Virus record (IMG/VR): IMGVR_UViG_2579778842_000003
Length of the DNA stretch: 64,000 nt
DNA from: a virus
Lineage: Duplodnaviria > Heunggongvirae > Uroviricota > Caudoviricetes
Strand: one strand, 5' to 3'
Part shown: in pieces, positions 15,194-46,467 of the stretch
Layout of the letters: the number at the start of each line of letters is the position of its first letter
Position numbering within the stretch: position 1 is the stretch's first letter
The notes under the pieces: model-generated
The model's database searches: none
What the model was told of the DNA's origin: nothing
The model's input: only the letters and a program-made list of their open reading frames with translations
Position numbers and translations under genes: made by a program

Positions 15194-15210
15194 ATTGCTC
15201 TAATAAATTA
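15194..15210 (+). promoter_or_regulatory. C1 operator overlapping a TTGACA -35 element (coi-c1 promoter region)
   Basis: ATTGCTCTAATAAATTA, 16 of 17; TTGACA immediately upstream at 15189-15194. Confidence 0.7.
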
Positions 15211-19948: not shown

Positions 19949-20992
19949 TTATATAACGCTCGACGAGTGACTTGTGATAGCGCCGACTCCAAGCGCGTAA
20001 TCAAAGAACAATCGTTGATGCATCGCCAGCCTACCGTGCGTCTTCTCCCAATTATCGCGGTCACGCTCAATATCACGCTGGCATGACTGGCACAGAGGAA
20101 TTGCGTAAATGTCATGCGCGCATAATCGACTATGACGAACGATATAAGGCGTAATGTGAGCGCCAGCTCCCGCCGCTCCACACCCACAGCATGGACGGGA
20201 AGCAACAAAGTCCATGTACTCAGGTAATTTTAGCGATTGCAGTTTTGGTATTTTGAAATGCGCCATGCCAGGGTCGGAGTCAACATCCACAGGGCATACT
20301 TTTGCACGCATCGGCGCGGCGCGTTCTTCCATCATCTGAACATATGCTGTAGCGCGATCGTCATACGGGCGAATATCCGCCTCTTTCAGAGGTCCGCTAT
20401 CCTGCGTTGCGGCTTTCATCTTATTTATTGATATACGGCAAACTTCTTCCGGCATCAGGTGCATCATGTTGCGCATGAAAGCCCACCAGCACAGTTCCTG
20501 AATACTTAGATCATGGCCATCTGAAAGCCCCATTTCCTGACGGGCGACATCCAGTATCCAGTTAACGCGATTATTATGCAGCGTTTCTTTCAGCTCATTA
20601 AAACCACGCATCCGGTAATGGTTATCGTGATGCCAGCACAACAACACCGCGCTATTGTCTCGTTCTGCGTGGACAATATGGTTGTCACACCAGCTACGAT
20701 CTGCGGCCTGGCATTGCCCCTCTTTCCTGCGCAACCACGCCACCAGCGCGTCAATTCCACCAATACGGCGAAACAGTTCATCGCTGTTAAAAAACGGCTG
20801 CAACGCCTCATTTGTTGCCATGGTTTGCTCGGTAACAACGAGGCCGTCTTCCATGTGCTCGATTAACTCGCGCGGCACCGGCTCCATAATAAATTTACGG
20901 CCAGCCTCCACCAGCTTTCTGACCTCCTGATCCACTTTGAACGTGGCGAGGCCAAGCTCTTTCTGTACAAAGGGAGTAATTACGGCTTTCAC
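19949..20992 (-). CDS. PdcB-like Cys-rich protein, 347 aa (GTG start)
   Basis: ORF downstream of doc; synteny with P1 pdcB. Confidence 0.4.
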
Positions 20993-21019
20993 ATCACACC
21001 TTTCATCACTGATTGGGCT

Positions 21020-21220
21020 TTATCTGCTGCCCGGCATTCTCTGTTTAAGCGCAACCATTTCCTGACGGCATAACACAGCAATAGCGGTCCTGACTCCAAT
21101 TTGCTTACCAACCAGGTATTGCTTTACCTTGCGGCGACTCACGCCATCAAGAAGCATCTTTAACGCTTCACGGGACAATTTGTTGTATTTGCGTGCCATT
21201 AATCTACTCCGCAGAACCAT
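21020..21220 (-). CDS. Small basic protein (pdcA position), 66 aa
   Basis: ORF overlapping doc 3' end; synteny only. Confidence 0.3.
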
Positions 21221-21584
21221 ACAATCTACGTAACGTGTCGGCGACAGAAGATACAGATATCTCTCCGGTCGCAGCCCCTACGGTAAGGTCTGCCAGTTCA
21301 GGTGAATCAAATACCTGCACCCCGTTACGGCGTAGAAATAACAGCGCACTGTTTAGCGCGGTACGCTTATTGGCATCATTGAATATATGCCCTCTCGCTG
21401 TAGCCACCAGGTAGGTGGCGGAGACTTCGAAAAGGTCGGTGATCTCTTCGTAGGCAACTCTGGCCTGAACTCTCCCGATAATGGCCTCTGCCCTACCAGG
21501 ATCTGACATTCCCGGCAGGCCGCCGTAGCGGTTTATATTCGCATCATGAAGCGCAATAAGTTCTTCCGGTGATATATGCCTCAT
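21204..21584 (-). CDS. doc: Doc toxin (Fic-fold kinase), 126 aa
   Basis: 126 aa starting [22 protein letters not shown], recognised as P1 Doc; stop-start overlap with phd. Confidence 0.92.
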
Positions 21585-21805
21585 TATCGGTTAACCAGTT
21601 CCTTGTTGGTGGAGTCCAGGGTGTCAAACAGGGATGCAAATTCAGCATCCAGCGCCGCTTTTTTGTAGGCTTCGAAAGTAGCCTTGCTGACAATTACTGC
21701 TGGCTCACGGCCTCTGCGGGTGATTTCAACCTCTTCCCCGGCTTCAACATTGTTGAGCACTTCAGAAAGGTTGCCGCGCGCGGTACGGAAGTTAATGGAT
21801 TGCAT
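21584..21805 (-). CDS. phd: Phd antitoxin, 73 aa
   Basis: Starts at internal Met of the 75-aa track ORF: [26 protein letters not shown], recognised as P1 Phd. Confidence 0.9.
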
Positions 21806-21811
21806 AAACAC

Positions 21812-21840
21812 CTCGTGTACTCGTTATGTGTACACAATTA
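21812..21840. promoter_or_regulatory. phd-doc promoter/operator region with GTGTAC palindromic repeats
   Basis: CGTGTACTCG and TGTGTACACA just upstream of phd start. Confidence 0.5.
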
Positions 21841-21877
21841 TAAACTTCACAGGCATAAAGCACCAGCACTTTGCAGC

Positions 21878-22267
21878 TTAAATGACCGGACAATCATCAA
21901 ACTCTCCACTCCGGGCATCATTGATGACATGAGTGATCACACCAAAAACAGCATTACTACCCGTGTAACCATCGTCATCTACTGGTAACGCCTCTTTCTT
22001 CCCGGTGCTTAAATCCTCCAGGTGCTGGCGCGGATACTTCCTGTATCTCTTTATGCGATATTCACCCTCCATAGCGCACACAAGCAGAGAACCATCAACC
22101 GGAGTAAGCGAGGAATCAACCACCAGCAAAGCACCCTGCAATATTCCCTCACGGTGATGGCTATCAGTTGCCCGCATGAAGTAGGTTGCTGATGGATGCC
22201 TGATTAGTTGCTGATCAAGAGAAATTCGGCTTTCAACATAATCCGCCGCAGGAGAAGGGAAGCCCAT
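21878..22267 (-). CDS. humD: HumD, UmuD'-like protein, 129 aa
   Basis: 129-aa ORF at the P1 humD position next to phd-doc; LexA box 22 bp upstream of start. Confidence 0.8.
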   Translation of the reverse strand: MGFPSPAADYVESRISLDQQLIRHPSATYFMRATDSHHREGILQGALLVVDSSLTPVDGSLLVCAMEGEYRIKRYRKYPRQHLEDLSTGKKEALPVDDDGYTGSNAVFGVITHVINDARSGEFDDCPVI

Positions 22268-22288
22268 AGCGTTTTCACCTCAATAATA

Positions 22289-22304
22289 CTGTTCATTTAT
22301 ACAG
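22289..22304. promoter_or_regulatory. LexA box (SOS operator) upstream of humD
   Basis: CTGTTCATTTATACAG fits CTGT-N8-ACAG. Confidence 0.65.
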
Positions 22305-22714
22305 TATACATTAAAGAGACACCTTTGGTGCAAACGCGTTACGTACATCAACCACCGCTGATGATTTTGTGCTCTTTGCTACTATTCATCACCAACGGAT
22401 CAGCGTAACCTCGTTGCCAATCAGTTAATAAGGAGATGCCGCAGCGACCGGATCATCAACAAGAAATTGTTGCTGAATTTTCCTCAAGGGATGAGATGAA
22501 TCTCTTCTCATTAAAGCAGGAAGAAAGGGATCGCGTCGAAGTGTCTCCAACTCTCGACCACAACCGGATGAACCTGGCCCAACTCGCCTAGTACAGCAAA
22601 GAATTAGAGATGTCTATTGCCCGACTTGAAAACGAAAAAGCCGCTATCCAAGTCCAGCACGAAGTAGTTCTGAACCGGATTAGAGAAATGCAAAACGATA
22701 ACAGGGGATTTTGA

Positions 22715-23071
22715 ATGGCTAAAGTCGAGTACCATCGCGATCGCGGTAATTACCTGGAAATATACGATCATGAATCTCTTAACGATATCAACGATGCGTT
22801 ATATGAATACTGTGAAAAAACGAGCATCACAGATGCACCTGATGCATTTGTCGAGCTGCCGGTATATCTCCGCGACATCTATGCAATACGAACACCGCCC
22901 GTATCGGTGATTCACATTGGCTATGTCCGCCTGTCCATCGAAGAAGATGAAGATCGTTATATCGTGCGCCACTATACATTGGACAGAAAAGAACTTCCTA
23001 ATGAATGGAACATGAGTAATTTCTACAACGGTGAATATGGCTTAAAATCCGCTAATAATTTACGGTCATAA
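22715..23071 (+). CDS. Hypothetical protein, 118 aa
   Basis: ORF on the opposite strand to humD, ATG overlaps stop of a small upstream ORF. Confidence 0.4.
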   Translation: MAKVEYHRDRGNYLEIYDHESLNDINDALYEYCEKTSITDAPDAFVELPVYLRDIYAIRTPPVSVIHIGYVRLSIEEDEDRYIVRHYTLDRKELPNEWNMSNFYNGEYGLKSANNLRS

Positions 23072-23933
23072 TCTATACAGGCATGTATAACAACAACGAG
23101 CCTATTAGCTGTCAACAACATTATTTTCTCAAATAAGAAAAAGCAGAAAACAAATTGTTTAAGATCACAAATTGTGGCCTTGATGGAGGAGGGAGGCTTA
23201 TTGGCTATGGCTAAAAATCAAATTAGACACTTCATGTTGCTGTAGCTCATCAAGATCCGAGGCCACAAAACCTTTTCCGAAAAACTTCACAAGTAACTCA
23301 CTAGCTGCATCATTGTCACCTATTACACGAAAGTCATACGGCAACGTCGCAAGTTGACGATGTAATCCTGCTGAGAAAGTCGAATCTAACAGCGCCCAGA
23401 ATTCCCACCGCAGGATAATACTCGCCTCTTAATACTGTATATATGTTGTTACGATATGTTTTTCTGTCTCTAAAAAAAGATGTTAATAGAATGCTAACCA
23501 TTGAAGGGGATAAAAATATACAATTCCAACAAACGTTATTTTTAACAATTTTTTTCTTTGCGTTGACTTTCCCTGACACCTTGTCTGACCGAAGGTGCGC
23601 GAAAGCCACTTTTTCCTTCCTGAGTTATCCACAAAGTTATGCACTTGCAAGAGGGCCATTTTCTACATATTGTGGTGGCTAACAGATGAAATGAATGTAG
23701 ATTAATTGAAGATAAGGAGAAAATTTGAGATGCAATCATGACGTTAATAGATAGGGTCTGCATTACAGACCCCACCCGCATCAAGGAATTAGCCGTTCCC
23801 TGATGTTTTTCCGAAAACATGTGCCGTAAGCTCACGTTAACGACTTTCATTCACCGAATCCAACTATATAGGGGTTGGGTTTCTACGTCAACGTGAGCAA
23901 GTGCACCTTTACATTTGACAAGGAACCACCTGA

Positions 23934-24071
23934 ATGAACGCTTTTTTTCAGTTCCTGAGTGCATTTTTAGATGCGCCTGTTATTAGCCAGATTCTGGCTA
24001 TTATCCTCATCATCGTTTTGATTTTGCTTTTAAGGTCAGTAAAAAATGGAATTATGCACTGGCTTACTTAA
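23934..24071 (+). CDS. Small hydrophobic single-TM peptide, 45 aa (candidate membrane toxin or small membrane protein)
   Basis: Own translation MNAFFQFLSAFLDAPVISQILAIILIIVLILLLRSVKNGIMHWLT; AAGGA upstream; perfect 8-bp inverted repeat hairpin just downstream; below the 60-aa track cutoff. Confidence 0.3.
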   Translation: MNAFFQFLSAFLDAPVISQILAIILIIVLILLLRSVKNGIMHWLT

Positions 24072-24146
24072 TGTTTCAGTGAAACATTAAAATATCCTTG
24101 ATGAGGAAACAATCATTTTCTGTATGTGCTGGTGGGCACCTGTAGT

Positions 24147-24509
24147 TCAGCTTTCGTTGGCATTTAACTTCGTCTTTGCTTTCTCCACCAGCAACTTCCA
24201 GATGCCTATTTCATTAGCAGCCGCCTTGATGGCGGCATAAAAAGCATCTTGCTGATCGTAACGCTGGATCTGTTTTTTCAGTTTTGCCTCCACCAATTTA
24301 ATTTCATTACGTGCTTTCTGAATCCGCATCACCGCCCGGTTACGTCTGTTCTTGTATAGCGTGTTAATCTCTGACAATTGCTTTAATTTACCAGCCTGAC
24401 TGCGGATTATCGCCTCCCTGGCTTCTGCCGTGCGTCTCATCTGATCTCTTAAGAGTTCACCGTTTTCGATAATTCTTTCAAGGTGTTTGATGTGATCTGC
24501 AACTCTCAT
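24147..24509 (-). CDS. Hypothetical coiled-coil protein, 120 aa
   Basis: ORF at downstream end of a long minus-strand gene block. Confidence 0.4.
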   Translation of the reverse strand: MRVADHIKHLERIIENGELLRDQMRRTAEAREAIIRSQAGKLKQLSEINTLYKNRRNRAVMRIQKARNEIKLVEAKLKKQIQRYDQQDAFYAAIKAAANEIGIWKLLVEKAKTKLNANES

Positions 24510-25180
24510 ACTTCACCCTCGCTTGTATCACCAGCGTCCACCAACGACAATAAAGCCCTGGCCATCTTATGAACCAACAGTGCATCAATAATGCCAAGCG
24601 TATGCCCCGGCTTAATGTTTAATGCTGCCTCAAGATGACACCTTTCCAGACCGCTTTTCTCGGCTTGTTTATGATGATATGGCGTAATAACGTCGCCCAA
24701 AACACGGCTAATTCTTTCTCGTAATTGCTGGGTGCCAGCACACTTGATCGCTGTATCGTGGAGACGGTTAACCAGTTCGCGATAAACATGCGGTTTAATG
24801 CGGATACGTTCACCGGTGACGCCCTTTCCTGGCCCTGGCACCGAACTATCCGGAATATCCGGATAGTTGCCAGCCTCGTAAGCTACCCGCAGCCAGTGCA
24901 TGAATGTTTCAGTAGACACACAACCACAGTCCACATCGATTTTTCCGCGTTGCTGTTCCAGCCACTGCTCAAAATTCAATCTACACGTATTACTTTCATG
25001 TTGCTCTTTTTGTCTTAAGGCCAGCACCTGTTGGGCCAGTTCCAGAACGATACCGGGTGACGCTAACCTCTCAAATTCCAATAAATAGTTTGCGTCAGGA
25101 TGACAAGTAGCCTCGCCTGCAAAAAATACCAATTGCTGTAAGTATGCTGTCGTTAGAGTAGTCATTTCTTTTTGCGCCAT
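24506..25180 (-). CDS. Hypothetical protein, 224 aa
   Basis: ORF with 4-nt stop-start overlap to the next gene. Confidence 0.45.
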   Translation of the reverse strand: MAQKEMTTLTTAYLQQLVFFAGEATCHPDANYLLEFERLASPGIVLELAQQVLALRQKEQHESNTCRLNFEQWLEQQRGKIDVDCGCVSTETFMHWLRVAYEAGNYPDIPDSSVPGPGKGVTGERIRIKPHVYRELVNRLHDTAIKCAGTQQLRERISRVLGDVITPYHHKQAEKSGLERCHLEAALNIKPGHTLGIIDALLVHKMARALLSLVDAGDTSEGEV

Positions 25181-25536
25181 TTCTTTTCACATTCCTTAGT
25201 CCATTTTTCAATGTTCATTTTGGCAATATCAGTCATTCCATCACCTAAGAAATACTTTTTCCGGTACGTCTTGCACTTAAACCACACTACAACAGCCACC
25301 AGCCAGAAAATAAAAGGCCATACAGCAATACCAACGACAGCCGCGATAAAGCCCAATAGCCATAAATGAAGCTCTCCAACTTCTGTTTCCGGCAATATTC
25401 TTAAAGAATTAAACAGCAGGCTGAACGAATGGTCGTATGCATTGGCAGTATAAGACATGCAATCCATATAATTAAAGTCATAGCCTGCGGCTGCCGCCCA
25501 TAATGGGCGGTCAAGAAAATGTTTTAGTGTCATCAT
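25162..25536 (-). CDS. Hypothetical membrane protein, 124 aa
   Basis: Hydrophobic segment LWLLGFIAAVVGIAVWPFIFWLVAVVVWF. Confidence 0.4.
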   Translation of the reverse strand: MMTLKHFLDRPLWAAAAGYDFNYMDCMSYTANAYDHSFSLLFNSLRILPETEVGELHLWLLGFIAAVVGIAVWPFIFWLVAVVVWFKCKTYRKKYFLGDGMTDIAKMNIEKWTKECEKKWRKKK

Positions 25537-25542
25537 ATAAAT

Positions 25543-25932
25543 TTAAGGTTCAGACCAGTTATCTTCAATAGCAATGCTTAATCTTTGTAGCCATTCTGCT
25601 AATTTCAGCATTGCTTCTCTTTCGCTTAAACCACGAGGAAAATCATCAAGCGAAATTGTTGGCTTGAATCCCCCGCAATTATCCATTTCAACTGTCAGAT
25701 TTTGTTCCAGCACGGTATTTCTTACGCGGCTATTGTGCCGGAGCAAATATACTGAGCATGATTTATTGGTTTTGTGGTCTAGCTTATATTCGGTAAGTAT
25801 CATCTGGCTTTTGCCATGATTATTACCTCTCCACATACTTACCTCACTTAATAAAACAACTCCATGCGTAGTTGATGATTTTTTCCCACGTAATATAAAT
25901 CTGCACTCCGGCAGTAAAACCAAAGCCAACAA
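25543..25932 (-). CDS. Hypothetical protein, 129 aa
   Basis: ORF in co-directional block. Confidence 0.3.
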   Translation of the reverse strand: MLALVLLPECRFILRGKKSSTTHGVVLLSEVSMWRGNNHGKSQMILTEYKLDHKTNKSCSVYLLRHNSRVRNTVLEQNLTVEMDNCGGFKPTISLDDFPRGLSEREAMLKLAEWLQRLSIAIEDNWSEP

Positions 25933-26014
25933 TTGCTGAAAAAATCAAAACATTTACTTTTGACATTATAAACTTTCTCTCGGTGTCGTAGGTGATAGCA
26001 CCATAATTGATAAT

Positions 26015-26248
26015 TTAGTGAGTTAGCAGTTCCATTTTTTTGATGATTTCCGCATGAGCATCATCGTTATCAACACTTAGCTCGTTTAATGCTTCTCGCA
26101 CTACATCAACTTCTTCAGGCTGAAAGAAGTCGTCGCGGTAATCACCAAATAGAACCGAAACCAGCCTGCTACCAGCAACATCAAGATTGGCGCTAACAGG
26201 TGGCTCTTTGCCATCCTCAAATTCGACTACAAAAGTTAATTTTCCCAT
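26015..26248 (-). CDS. Hypothetical acidic protein, 77 aa
   Basis: ORF in co-directional block. Confidence 0.3.
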   Translation of the reverse strand: MGKLTFVVEFEDGKEPPVSANLDVAGSRLVSVLFGDYRDDFFQPEEVDVVREALNELSVDNDDAHAEIIKKMELLTH

Positions 26249-26324
26249 CGTTACCCCCAGAAGATAAAAATAGCGGCAATCGCCATAGCTACGCCTACAA
26301 TCGCAAATGCTTCAGGCCAGCTTA

Positions 26325-26585
26325 TTACCTCACCTCCAGTCTCCATACCGCCTGACCAATCCGGCTGGCATGGGTATCTTTGGATACTGTTCCATCTTTA
26401 GCCAGCTCCATAAGAATTTTGCGCAAATCTGCCGAACGCCATTCTTCATCAGGAAATTCCTTCTCCATTGCCAACCGCAGATTCCAGGTTGCTATCGTGA
26501 ATGGATATTCCCCGCCGAGAGCTTTCTCTTGCAGGGCAGCACGGGAACGTATCACCTGCAAAACCTTCTCTTTTACATCCATCAT
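26325..26585 (-). CDS. Hypothetical protein, about 86 aa from internal Met
   Basis: Internal ATG forms ATGA overlap with stop of the upstream gene. Confidence 0.35.
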   Translation of the reverse strand: MMDVKEKVLQVIRSRAALQEKALGGEYPFTIATWNLRLAMEKEFPDEEWRSADLRKILMELAKDGTVSKDTHASRIGQAVWRLEVR

Positions 26586-27769
26586 TTTGCCTCCTGCGGC
26601 GGTTCTGGTAGCGGCATCCAGTGTGATGGTATCCACGACGCACCAGGTATTACCCACCCATCATTAGCGTCAGGATGCCCCGGGATGTAAGTCGCCCATT
26701 TCATTCGCCAGTCACCTTTCCTGTCAAACTCCCTGGCAACAAGAACGGCTGTTTTGGTATCCGGCATTCGCTCACTACAGCTTATCCAACTATCCGGAAT
26801 TACCGGAAAGTTGCGCATTGCGACCTTTAATGCCTCATAGAAGCACTCTTTCAAATTGTTGAACTGACACCCATTTAGAGGACCGTGTTCAGTCAGCATG
26901 TTGTGTAATTTCCATGCCGCGTCGTTTACTGCGTTGGATGACATGGGAGGCAACTTGTAAGCCTGGCTTACAGGCTCGGAACCATGAAGAATGGCGGCGC
27001 GGCAGGCATCCTCTACGCCCTTAACTGCATCTGCGCAGTAGTTATAGCGATTGCATTCCACTAACTTCTGCTTGAGATTTTCAATTGCTTGTGCGACATC
27101 AGCCTGTATTGGTGGAACGGCTGTCTGCTGCTCTCGAACGTCATTAGTCGCTATCGGTTCTGCTGCCAACTGACTGGCATATTTGTTAATGGTAACGATA
27201 AGCTCTTGCTCAGCCTCATCCAGACAATCACCGATACCTCGTCTGTCGCCGTCAAAATCATCGAAATCAGCACGAACTCTGGCAAACTTCAGGATTGCGG
27301 ACAACACCTCACCAGGAATTACCGGAGAGTTGGTTGACGTTTCCGCAATTTCCCGAAAATTATTGGTTGACGCATTCGCGTTTTTCCGAAAGTTTCCGGC
27401 ATGAAGCATAGCCGCGCGGCAGGCGTTCCAGCCTCTCACCTCTGCAATAGCGGCAACAGCATCGACCGCGTACATGCTAAGAGGGTTAGGCATTGGTTTT
27501 TCTTCCGGTACTACTGGCGCTGGAGGGGCAGTGTAAAGCTGGTGCGTTCCATCAGGTAGCGAGTGACCCACATACTCACCGACCCCGTCAATACACATGC
27601 CCCCATCTTCAACAATGCATTCCGCTACAGGCTCTGCTTCCAGTGATGCCAGCGCAATCCGTGCCAGCTCTTCCGCTTCTTCTGCTGGCAGTACAACGTT
27701 GCTACCAGGTCCGTATGTTTCGCGCCACTCCTTGATTGTCAGCAGTCGCTCTTTGGTAATAGTGATCAT
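26582..27769 (-). CDS. Phage protein with DUF551-like C-terminus, 395 aa
   Basis: C-terminal WIPSHWMPLPEPP pattern typical of a common phage domain. Confidence 0.45.
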   Translation of the reverse strand: MITITKERLLTIKEWRETYGPGSNVVLPAEEAEELARIALASLEAEPVAECIVEDGGMCIDGVGEYVGHSLPDGTHQLYTAPPAPVVPEEKPMPNPLSMYAVDAVAAIAEVRGWNACRAAMLHAGNFRKNANASTNNFREIAETSTNSPVIPGEVLSAILKFARVRADFDDFDGDRRGIGDCLDEAEQELIVTINKYASQLAAEPIATNDVREQQTAVPPIQADVAQAIENLKQKLVECNRYNYCADAVKGVEDACRAAILHGSEPVSQAYKLPPMSSNAVNDAAWKLHNMLTEHGPLNGCQFNNLKECFYEALKVAMRNFPVIPDSWISCSERMPDTKTAVLVAREFDRKGDWRMKWATYIPGHPDANDGWVIPGASWIPSHWMPLPEPPQEAK

Positions 27770-44433: not shown

Positions 44434-44509
44434 TGGTGGCCCCTACCGGACTTGAACCGGTGACCGTGCGATTATGAGTCGCCAGCTCTAACCACTGAGC
44501 TAAAGGGCC
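44434..44509 (-). tRNA. trnI: tRNA with CAU anticodon, Ile2-like (lysidine type)
   Basis: 76-nt cloverleaf ending CCA, anticodon loop CTCATAA; resembles E. coli ileX as recalled. Confidence 0.7.
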
Positions 44510-46313: not shown

Positions 46314-46389
46314 TGGTGCCGATTAACGGACTCGAACCGCTGACATCCTGCTTACAAGGCAGGCGCTCTACCAACTGAGCTAAACCGGC
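46314..46389 (-). tRNA. trnT: tRNA-Thr (UGU)
   Basis: 76-nt cloverleaf with CCA, anticodon loop CTTGTAA, T-loop TTCGAGT. Confidence 0.8.
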
Positions 46390-46391
46390 AT

Positions 46392-46467
46392 TGGCGATGG
46401 TGGATGGATTTGAACCATCGACCCGTTGATTAACAGTCAACCGCTCTAACCGCTGAGCTACACCATC
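46392..46467 (-). tRNA. trnA: tRNA-Asn (GUU)
   Basis: 76-nt cloverleaf with CCA, anticodon loop CTGTTAA, T-loop TTCAAAT. Confidence 0.8.

Follow-up and report, generated by a model that had tools for sequence, protein, structure and literature searches.

A candidate small membrane-peptide gene, its conserved leader and predicted convergent promoters in P1-like phage-plasmids

Leader-targeted type I toxin-antitoxin systems, such as hok/sok, ldr/rdl and zorO/orzO, encode a hydrophobic single-helix peptide of fewer than 60 amino acids (aa) with a basic C-terminus. The mRNA carries a long, structured and conserved leader with small upstream open reading frames (ORFs), and a weak sense promoter is opposed, from within the leader, by a strong one on the other strand. 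Face-to-face promoters, each serving a different gene, are also described for prgQ/prgX of pCF10 and pR/pL of coliphage 186. In this study, a locus of comparable layout is described in a viral DNA stretch of 64,000 nucleotides (nt), IMG/VR record IMGVR_UViG_2579778842_000003, the whole of which is referred to as the window. The locus is a cassette of about 510 bp (23625-24137) within the interval 23080-24146, and it contains a 45-codon ORF (ORF45) on the plus strand. Over this interval, P7/SJ46-type members of the P1-like phage-plasmids share 99% identity with the window, which by its sequence is such a phage-plasmid; P1 itself is about 95% identical to the window over 23595-24146.

P1 is among the most used and best annotated phages, and in the P1 and P7 references this interval carries three to five unconserved ORFs. 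ORF45, which is conserved and lies on the opposite strand, has no described function, and neither has a far more conserved leader core of 187 nt. With a leader that appears to be read from both directions, ORF45 is a plausible, if unproven, candidate for gating by an antisense transcript. Phage-plasmids of this kind occur in roughly 3-4% of complete Escherichia coli genomes (193/5426), and phage-plasmids often carry resistance genes.

ORF45 and the conserved leader core

The related loci fall into three clades, namely the P7/SJ46 type (at least 97% identity), the P1 type (about 95%) and a divergent clade (about 77%); 76 loci hold the whole region. ORF45 and its peptide are present as given in the preliminary description, with the noted AAGGA located 9 nt before the ATG, and the ORF is indeed conserved in P1-like genomes: it is intact in 76/76 loci, with six peptide variants, and full-length in 228/229 plasmids. 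A 45-codon ORF alone would be within chance, as dozens of ORFs of 25-102 aa are found on the two strands of this stretch; ORF45 is credible because it is conserved across the clades, which agree on its start, stop and length. The position of the Shine-Dalgarno sequence is also constant, and the divergent clade has GAGGA there.

In the predicted peptide, an amphipathic N-terminal segment is followed by a transmembrane core (about residues 16-33) and by a basic C-terminus with a conserved Trp43. The core has a mean Kyte-Doolittle hydropathy of 3.3 for the window and of 2.8 for the divergent clade. The comparison with the divergent clade yields 32 nucleotide and 18 amino-acid differences and no insertion or deletion (indel), and the replacements are mostly from one hydrophobic residue to another. 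The ratio of nonsynonymous to synonymous divergence (dN/dS) is 0.39, with a dS of 0.56. In simulated random mutation sets the transmembrane core survives in 2.9%, and the observed BLOSUM score is reached in 5%. The evidence for coding from the simulation and dN/dS is moderate rather than overwhelming.

The same data may be read to mean that ORF45 is not translated, the frame being kept open by constraint on RNA structure or on the promoter, and the hydrophobicity arising from a T-rich composition. Consistent with this, the differences are spread nearly evenly over the codon positions (11, 8, 13), the frame stays open in 42% of the random mutation sets, a second plus-strand frame also has just one stop per clade, and the RNA model discussed below places helices inside ORF45. 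These points are countered by the dN/dS value, by the rare survival of the transmembrane core in the simulations, and by the retention of start, stop, length and Shine-Dalgarno sequence at 23% nucleotide divergence without an indel, whereas the adjoining spacer has indels between the clades. Moreover, both PGAP and the SJ46 authors call ORF45 a gene. Absence of translation is considered very unlikely, and ORF45 behaves like a real, conserved, family-specific gene for a small single-pass membrane protein of P1-like phage-plasmids.

The ORF is unannotated in the P1 and P7 records, where upfM/N/O and upf91.3-91.7 are called on the opposite strand instead; it is, however, already listed as a hypothetical protein in SJ46 (J46_0085) and in RefSeq plasmids annotated by PGAP (WP_000123562.1). 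The upfM ORF is absent from the divergent clade, in which a 1-nt indel shifts the frame, and is probably not a gene. The length of upfN is 102 aa in the window, 65 aa in P1 and 42 aa in the divergent clade. The opposite-strand ORFs of the P1 and P7 records vary in length or disappear from clade to clade, and upfM, upfN and upfO are unsupported as conserved coding genes, as are the plus-strand ORFs of 21 aa and 25 aa. In P1, upfN and upfO were found non-essential by both CRISPR interference and deletion, and upfM by deletion only, without a CRISPR interference test (PMC10695390). The viability of such lesions is uninformative for ORF45, because each of them would take out promoter and ORF elements together.

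Four variants of ORF45 are found in protein databases, in which the first 31-37 residues are kept and the C-terminus then diverges. The altered C-termini look as if the frame had been shifted, disrupted by an insertion or cut short within the transmembrane helix or just past it, and could be occasional inactivations or assembly errors.

To place these values on a neutral scale, the synonymous divergence of neighbouring genes between P1 and the divergent clade was used as yardstick (hot, dS 0.46-0.57; humD, dS 0.42-0.83). The Jukes-Cantor (JC) distances in Table 1 vary widely along the cassette. The non-coding leader core has the lowest (P = 2e-19 against the neutral yardstick); its conservation is some sixfold that of synonymous sites and also exceeds that of ORF45 itself. 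The flanks are near neutral. From these distances, therefore, the unit under selection extends from the DnaA boxes to just past ORF45. The core contains a strong, invariant Shine-Dalgarno-like sequence, a mini-ORF and an upstream ORF of 21 codons. The latter differs between the clades in 6/21 residues, mostly through codon positions 1 and 2, and shows no amino-acid constraint; if anything, its translation alone could matter.

The predicted facing promoters and the leader RNA

The candidate sense promoter of ORF45 is of host origin. Within a longer copy of the chromosomal DNA that precedes nrdA in E. coli, the 64 bp at 23600-23663 match the host regulatory region at 100% identity; they contain the two DnaA boxes and a -35 that by alignment is the -35 of the host nrdA. 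The homology stops at 23663-23664, 5 nt before the native -10 TATCTT, with 36 nt absent relative to E. coli; in place of the native -10 and the sequence just downstream, there is a -10 of the phage's own at the correct 17-nt spacing. The DnaA boxes are unchanged in 75/76 loci, and in the one other locus their pattern gave no match. It is noteworthy that GenBank entry M95666 labels the P1 counterpart "nrdA-like promoter" and "dnaA box" on the plus (ORF45) strand. The promoter scan revealed no better plus-strand promoter nearer to ORF45, whose plausible promoter is the nrdA-like one about 255 nt upstream.

The promoter element previously proposed for ORF45, a TTGACA at 23915-23920, is misplaced. 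It runs into the Shine-Dalgarno sequence and stops 13 nt short of the ATG, and it cannot be the -35 of ORF45, because the -10 would fall inside the ORF; part of the divergent clade has TAGACG at this site. Control of the cassette by LexA or by the C1 operator was likewise rejected, as neither has sites there. The only LexA-box matches near the cassette (23464 and 23670) have one mismatch and are not above chance, and the perfect box lies 1.6 kb away at humD; the cassette had been described as adjoining the LexA-regulated humD region, but no SOS link was found. In the window as a whole there are 12 matches to the P1 C1 operator consensus with up to three mismatches (for example, 47134-47150 and 15194-15210), where chance would give 0.27.

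The nrdA-like DnaA boxes and -35 are also present in phage Cyrano (L085, 1650-1800), here with the native -10 TATCTT. Some 90 nt farther along lies a strong GC-rich terminator, AAAAAGCCCAG...CTGGGCTTTTT, and the arrangement could represent a small RNA expressed from the captured host promoter.

On the minus strand, a predicted sigma-70 promoter whose sequence is invariant in 76/76 loci lies inside the leader. Its inferred start is at about 23855, leftward, so that the two predicted transcripts would overlap over 23680-23855 (about 176 nt); the leader core corresponds to most of this overlap together with the minus-strand promoter. The P1upfM promoter was rejected as the antisense promoter, being destroyed in the divergent clade. 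For a putative opposite-strand partner transcript, as the preliminary description had anticipated, there is good sequence evidence in the invariant promoter and in the leader, the most conserved part of the locus; the transcript, however, probably overlaps the 5' leader and not 23850-24100, where it had been expected.

In each P1-type or divergent locus whose flank is long enough, the minus-strand promoter is immediately followed by hot, the homolog of the theta subunit of DNA polymerase III. The hot gene is absent from all P7-type loci (about 40), including the window, and in these the core, the promoter and ORF45 are unchanged. As hot is directly downstream, the minus-strand transcript would most simply be the sigma-70 (lysogenic) hot mRNA, with the core as its 5' untranslated region (UTR). 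In P1, the antisense transcript probably runs on into hot and is not a discrete small RNA. Chikova and Schaaper are said to have reported in 2007 that hot is expressed in lysogens and late in infection, and expression in lysogens would call for a promoter of this kind.

On both strands, the leader folds better than shuffled sequences (z about -3.7). For the stem-loop of the minus-strand RNA, the folding energies are -20.4 kcal/mol (z = -5.3) with the window sequence and -21.2 kcal/mol (z = -5.9) with that of the divergent clade, where one compensatory pair (T-A to C-G) changes its core to GGGCCTG/CAGGCCC. In the long stem-loop of the plus-strand RNA, a substitution of U for C leaves a U-G pair that can form on this strand only, and several plus-strand helices accept one-sided changes only as G-U pairs. 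A model of the whole sense mRNA contains 3/102 compensatory pairs, against 0-2 in slid controls; 17 pairs change on one side only, nearly always with the pairing retained (4/611 cells are unpaired). The covariation in this model should be taken as suggestive only. The hairpin that had been described as a perfect 8-bp inverted repeat following ORF45 is present, but it has 10 bp and extends over the stop codon, and having no U-tract it is not a canonical terminator. The divergent clade has one compensatory pair and one wobble change in this stem-loop, which is not the minimum-energy fold in the divergent locus L003.

From these observations a model of the cassette may be drawn. In order, it would comprise the nrdA-derived promoter with its two DnaA boxes, the structured leader of about 255 nt from the inferred sense start to the ATG, ORF45, and the short stem-loop, with the minus-strand promoter firing from inside the leader against the sense promoter. 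Of the mechanisms considered, the one favoured, although held with reserve, is that the strong minus-strand promoter represses ORF45 by antisense pairing together with convergent transcriptional interference. The abundant minus-strand transcript would keep ORF45 silent as a cis-antisense RNA, while the interference would hit the weak sense promoter, which bears the DnaA boxes and would be under their control; in P1 and the divergent clade, the antisense RNA would extend into hot, which the window has lost. Such a layout fits type I toxin-antitoxin loci or small membrane proteins whose expression is gated. Of the preliminary suggestion of a type I toxin or small membrane protein, the conserved small membrane-protein gene is retained, but a match to a known toxin family is lacking, and the peptide is at most a putative toxin.

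The position of hot also allows the core to be assigned to hot only. The minus-strand promoter would drive hot in lysogens, 23711-23855 would be a structured 5' UTR, the DnaA boxes would lie in the path of the transcript, and ORF45 would be separate or barely expressed and not regulated through the overlap. The constant downstream location of hot agrees with this, and so does the strongest hairpin, a minus-strand structure past which, for want of a terminator tail, transcription should continue. On the other hand, the P7-type loci without hot keep the core, the promoter and ORF45, although this argument is weak, the clade being young; several one-sided changes preserve pairing in the plus-strand RNA alone; the conservation of the DnaA boxes and -35 is that of a promoter on the plus strand; and ORF45 itself is conserved. 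An exclusive service to hot is regarded as rather unlikely. The two accounts are compatible, since the antisense partner of ORF45 could be the 5' UTR of hot.

According to a further alternative, ORF45 is an ordinary accessory membrane protein of the moron type, expressed from a captured host promoter, non-toxic and under no antisense control, with possible roles in the modulation of host membrane proteins or in phage exclusion. The borders of the cassette are constant in three right-hand contexts (pmgV, a type I restriction-modification operon and a 71-aa ORF). Its own predicted promoter and 3' stem-loop, its AT-rich composition, its location between operons and its mosaic distribution are all in keeping with a moron, as is the lack of a toxin family match for ORF45; furthermore, single-transmembrane-helix peptides with a basic C-terminus are common among harmless small proteins. 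What it leaves unexplained is the conservation of the leader, at its 187 nt some six times above that of synonymous sites and above that of ORF45, and the invariant strong promoter that faces the sense promoter. This alternative is judged unlikely.

With regard to the right-hand contexts, the type I restriction-modification operon (hsdM, hsdS) adjoins the cassette in the divergent-clade plasmid L004 (3400-5421), where it replaces pmgV-pmgT. The P1 record notes a similarity to the EcoDXXI hsd flanks, which matches the L004 arrangement.

Several results weigh against repression of ORF45 by the minus-strand promoter. The sense -10 is weak, and very weak in the divergent clade (TACTGT or TACCGT), and the stricter consensus promoter scan did not flag the candidate sense promoter. 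The distribution of ORF45 differences over the codon positions indicates that selection on the peptide is moderate. Once its stem is extended, the minus-strand hairpin has no U tail and was rejected as an intrinsic terminator; therefore, a discrete antitoxin-like small RNA is not predicted. A conserved hairpin hiding the ORF45 Shine-Dalgarno sequence is also unsupported, as there is no such conserved helix, and the three clades, which are effectively two lineages, provide little power for the detection of covariation. Killing upon loss of P1 was reportedly abolished by doc mutations (as Lehnherr et al. are said to have found in 1993), and therefore a strong second post-segregational killer would be argued against.

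The searches for relatives point in the same direction. ORF45 has no family match in Pfam or NCBIfam (in both, no toxin family at E up to 10) or in PHROGs, and none in a PDB sequence search. In PADLOC, which covers anti-phage defence proteins, the window peptide has no match at E up to 1; the divergent peptide has a weak transmembrane match at E = 0.11. In Rfam, no antitoxin RNA or other match is found at E up to 1 over 20000-27000. Neither a word-indexed protein search nor an exhaustive one over 1.84 billion representative proteins yielded more than the four C-terminally altered variants, and no distant relatives were seen in the latter.

The other searches may be listed briefly. A resemblance of ORF45 to Ldr was considered and rejected, as BLASTP against LdrD yielded no alignment. 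In genome contigs, the back-translated peptide pattern yielded 188 matches, of which none was confirmed, and a conserved 20-mer yielded none. The scans of IMG/VR and metagenomes returned the same three clades and no further one, and tblastn at E up to 10 returned no relatives outside P1-like elements. In the literature, no paper was found on ORF45, on a type I toxin-antitoxin system of P1 or on its nrdA-like promoter.

A stronger form of the convergent-promoter model would make of the cassette a new orphan family of modules, of type I toxin-antitoxin kind and confined to P1-like phage-plasmids, in which the toxin promoter would be captured from nrdA and DnaA-responsive, and the antitoxin would be the 5' UTR of the lysogenic hot mRNA. 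Such a module appears doubtful; if real, it would join a replication-fidelity factor, the initiation potential of the host and a membrane-active peptide in one convergent-promoter switch. Should the convergent-promoter model as such be true, the reference annotation of P1 and P7 would be corrected and the lysogenic expression of hot explained. It would also provide a further example of a phage reusing a DnaA-controlled, cell-cycle promoter of its host, and might add a new antisense-gated membrane peptide on phage-plasmids. If the model is false, ORF45 would be an ordinary small hypothetical membrane protein.

The surrounding interval

The interval is AT-rich, as previously noted, with a G+C content of 0.35-0.43 against 0.45-0.53 in the flanks. 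It is not empty, and the statement that it holds no convincing ORF of 60 aa or more requires revision: ORFs of 79, 91 and 102 aa are present, although in none of the three is the length or the frame kept across the clades. Part of the apparently gene-poor interval is so because 23201-23398 is the remnant of a phage gene truncated at its 5' end, with 88% identity to the PhiR41_1 protein XSB42472.1 (E = 6e-36, tblastn) and with the N-terminal 108 codons missing; another part is the nrdA copy at 23535-23663. In addition, 23415-23649 is 82% identical to the region beside a humD-like gene of phage Cyrano (L085, 1437-1687) and gives the impression of a humD control region left over from a duplication. 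The LexA box of Cyrano, CTGTATACACATACAG, is intact, and its window counterpart, around 23433-23448, is decayed. From its make-up, the interval is partly recombination debris.

At the equivalent of 23326, P7 (L002, 1444-2500) carries an inserted IS903; the window, SJ46 and many plasmids are uninterrupted there. On the left, the 118-aa ORF bordering the interval is P7 upf93.6, on the plus strand. Farther left lies the broken upf94.2 homolog, of which residues 103-194 alone match; the N-terminal 102 codons are gone, and Trp154 is replaced by an in-frame TAG at 22589-22591. The region from pmgT to humD has been described as variable among P1-like plasmids (PMC9603915). Elsewhere in the window, three tRNA genes (Met-CAT, Thr-TGT and Asn-GTT) are located at 44434-44509 and 46314-46467 on the minus strand, as expected of a P1-like genome.

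Table 1. Positions of the features in and around the cassette, with JC distances where calculated
Feature	Position	Strand	Remarks
ORF45, 45-aa single-pass membrane peptide (predicted)	23934..24071	+	Shine-Dalgarno AAGGA 23920-23924; JC 0.277
Leader core, non-coding, most constrained feature	23711..23897		187 nt; 15/187 differences; JC 0.085; P = 2e-19
DnaA boxes and -35, segment compared	23621-23664		JC 0.097
Left flank, spacers and region 3' of the stop codon (4 segments)			JC 0.33-0.72
Copy of E. coli chromosome just upstream of nrdA (under ypaB)	23535..23663	+	95% identity over 130 bp
DnaA boxes	23625-23633; 23637-23645	+	TTATCCACA; TTATGCACT
Candidate sense promoter	-35 23645-23650; -10 23668-23673	+	TTGCAA, 17-nt spacer, TATTGT; inferred start ~23680
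Predicted sigma-70 promoter	23891..23863	-	TTGACG-17-TATAGT; 10/12 consensus positions; PupfN of the P1 annotation
Shine-Dalgarno-like sequence	23713-23719	+	TAAGGAG; strong, invariant
Mini-ORF	23730-23741	+	ATG CAA TCA TGA (MQS-stop); ATG TAA (Met-stop) in divergent clade
Upstream ORF of 21 codons	23738-23803	+	Start overlaps the mini-ORF end (ATGA)
Predicted stem-loop of minus-strand RNA	23749..23777	-	13-14 bp; core GGGTCTG/CAGACCC at 23754-23772
Predicted second hairpin	23779..23805		CATCAAGGAA / TTCCCTGATG; stem invariant, 3/7 loop bases differ between clades
Predicted long stem-loop of plus-strand RNA	23831..23897	+	CTCACGTTAACG...CGTCAACGTGAG; RNAalifold; inner 10-bp hairpin uses G-U pairs
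Predicted AU-rich stem-loop	24068-24077 / 24081-24090	+	10 bp; includes the ORF45 stop codon; -8.6 kcal/mol, z = -3.0
upfM / upf91.3 (P1, P7 annotations)	23851..23964	-	Antisense to the start of ORF45
Pseudogene remnant	23201..23398	-	C-terminal 66 residues (109-174) of a 174-aa PhiR41_1 hypothetical protein; tblastn
doc and phd, addiction module	21204-21811	-	~2.1 kb left of ORF45
humD	21878-22267	-	
Perfect LexA box	22289-22304		Between humD and the broken upf94.2 homolog
upf94.2 homolog, broken	22305-22714	+	Matches P7 upf94.2 (194 aa)
pmgV	24147..24509	-	Right border of the interval

Comparison with known systems

The SOS-induced membrane toxins tisB/istR and dinQ/agrB differ from the cassette, whose ORF45 promoter has no LexA box. 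Of the features of phage morons, the cassette has its own predicted promoter, a low G+C content and constant borders in three contexts, and its 3' stem-loop has no U-tract. The annotated upfM/N/O of P1 and upf91.3-91.7 of P7 concern the same DNA, and PupfN is the minus-strand promoter described above, but their ORFs are on the strand opposite to ORF45 and are unconserved.

The resemblance to hok/sok, ldr/rdl and zorO/orzO covers the form of the predicted peptide, an mRNA predicted at about 400 nt with a structured leader and small upstream ORFs, the weak sense promoter opposed to a strong one inside the leader, and the occurrence on a plasmid-type element. Neither in sequence nor by profile, however, does ORF45 resemble Hok/Gef, Ldr, Fst, TisB, Ibs, ShoB, DinQ, ZorO or other known type I toxins. 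In contrast to the leader-targeted systems, no antitoxin RNA of Rfam and no terminated small RNA are predicted, and the antisense transcript probably continues into hot. Addiction in P1 is, moreover, genetically attributed to phd-doc.

The sense promoter is closest to that of E. coli nrdAB, of which 23535-23663 is a near-exact copy with both DnaA boxes directly upstream of the -35 TTGCAA. It differs in lacking the native -10 TATCTT and in being predicted to drive a gene for a membrane peptide instead of ribonucleotide reductase.

With respect to prgQ/prgX of pCF10 and pR/pL of coliphage 186, the cassette differs in that its promoters are predicted, no repressor or operator was recognised, and the only protein sites apparent are the two boxes for the host DnaA, at the sense promoter. 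The arrangement is nevertheless alike: the predicted promoters are face to face, conservation falls on the overlap of about 176 nt, and each promoter would serve a different gene, ORF45 on the one side and hot on the other.

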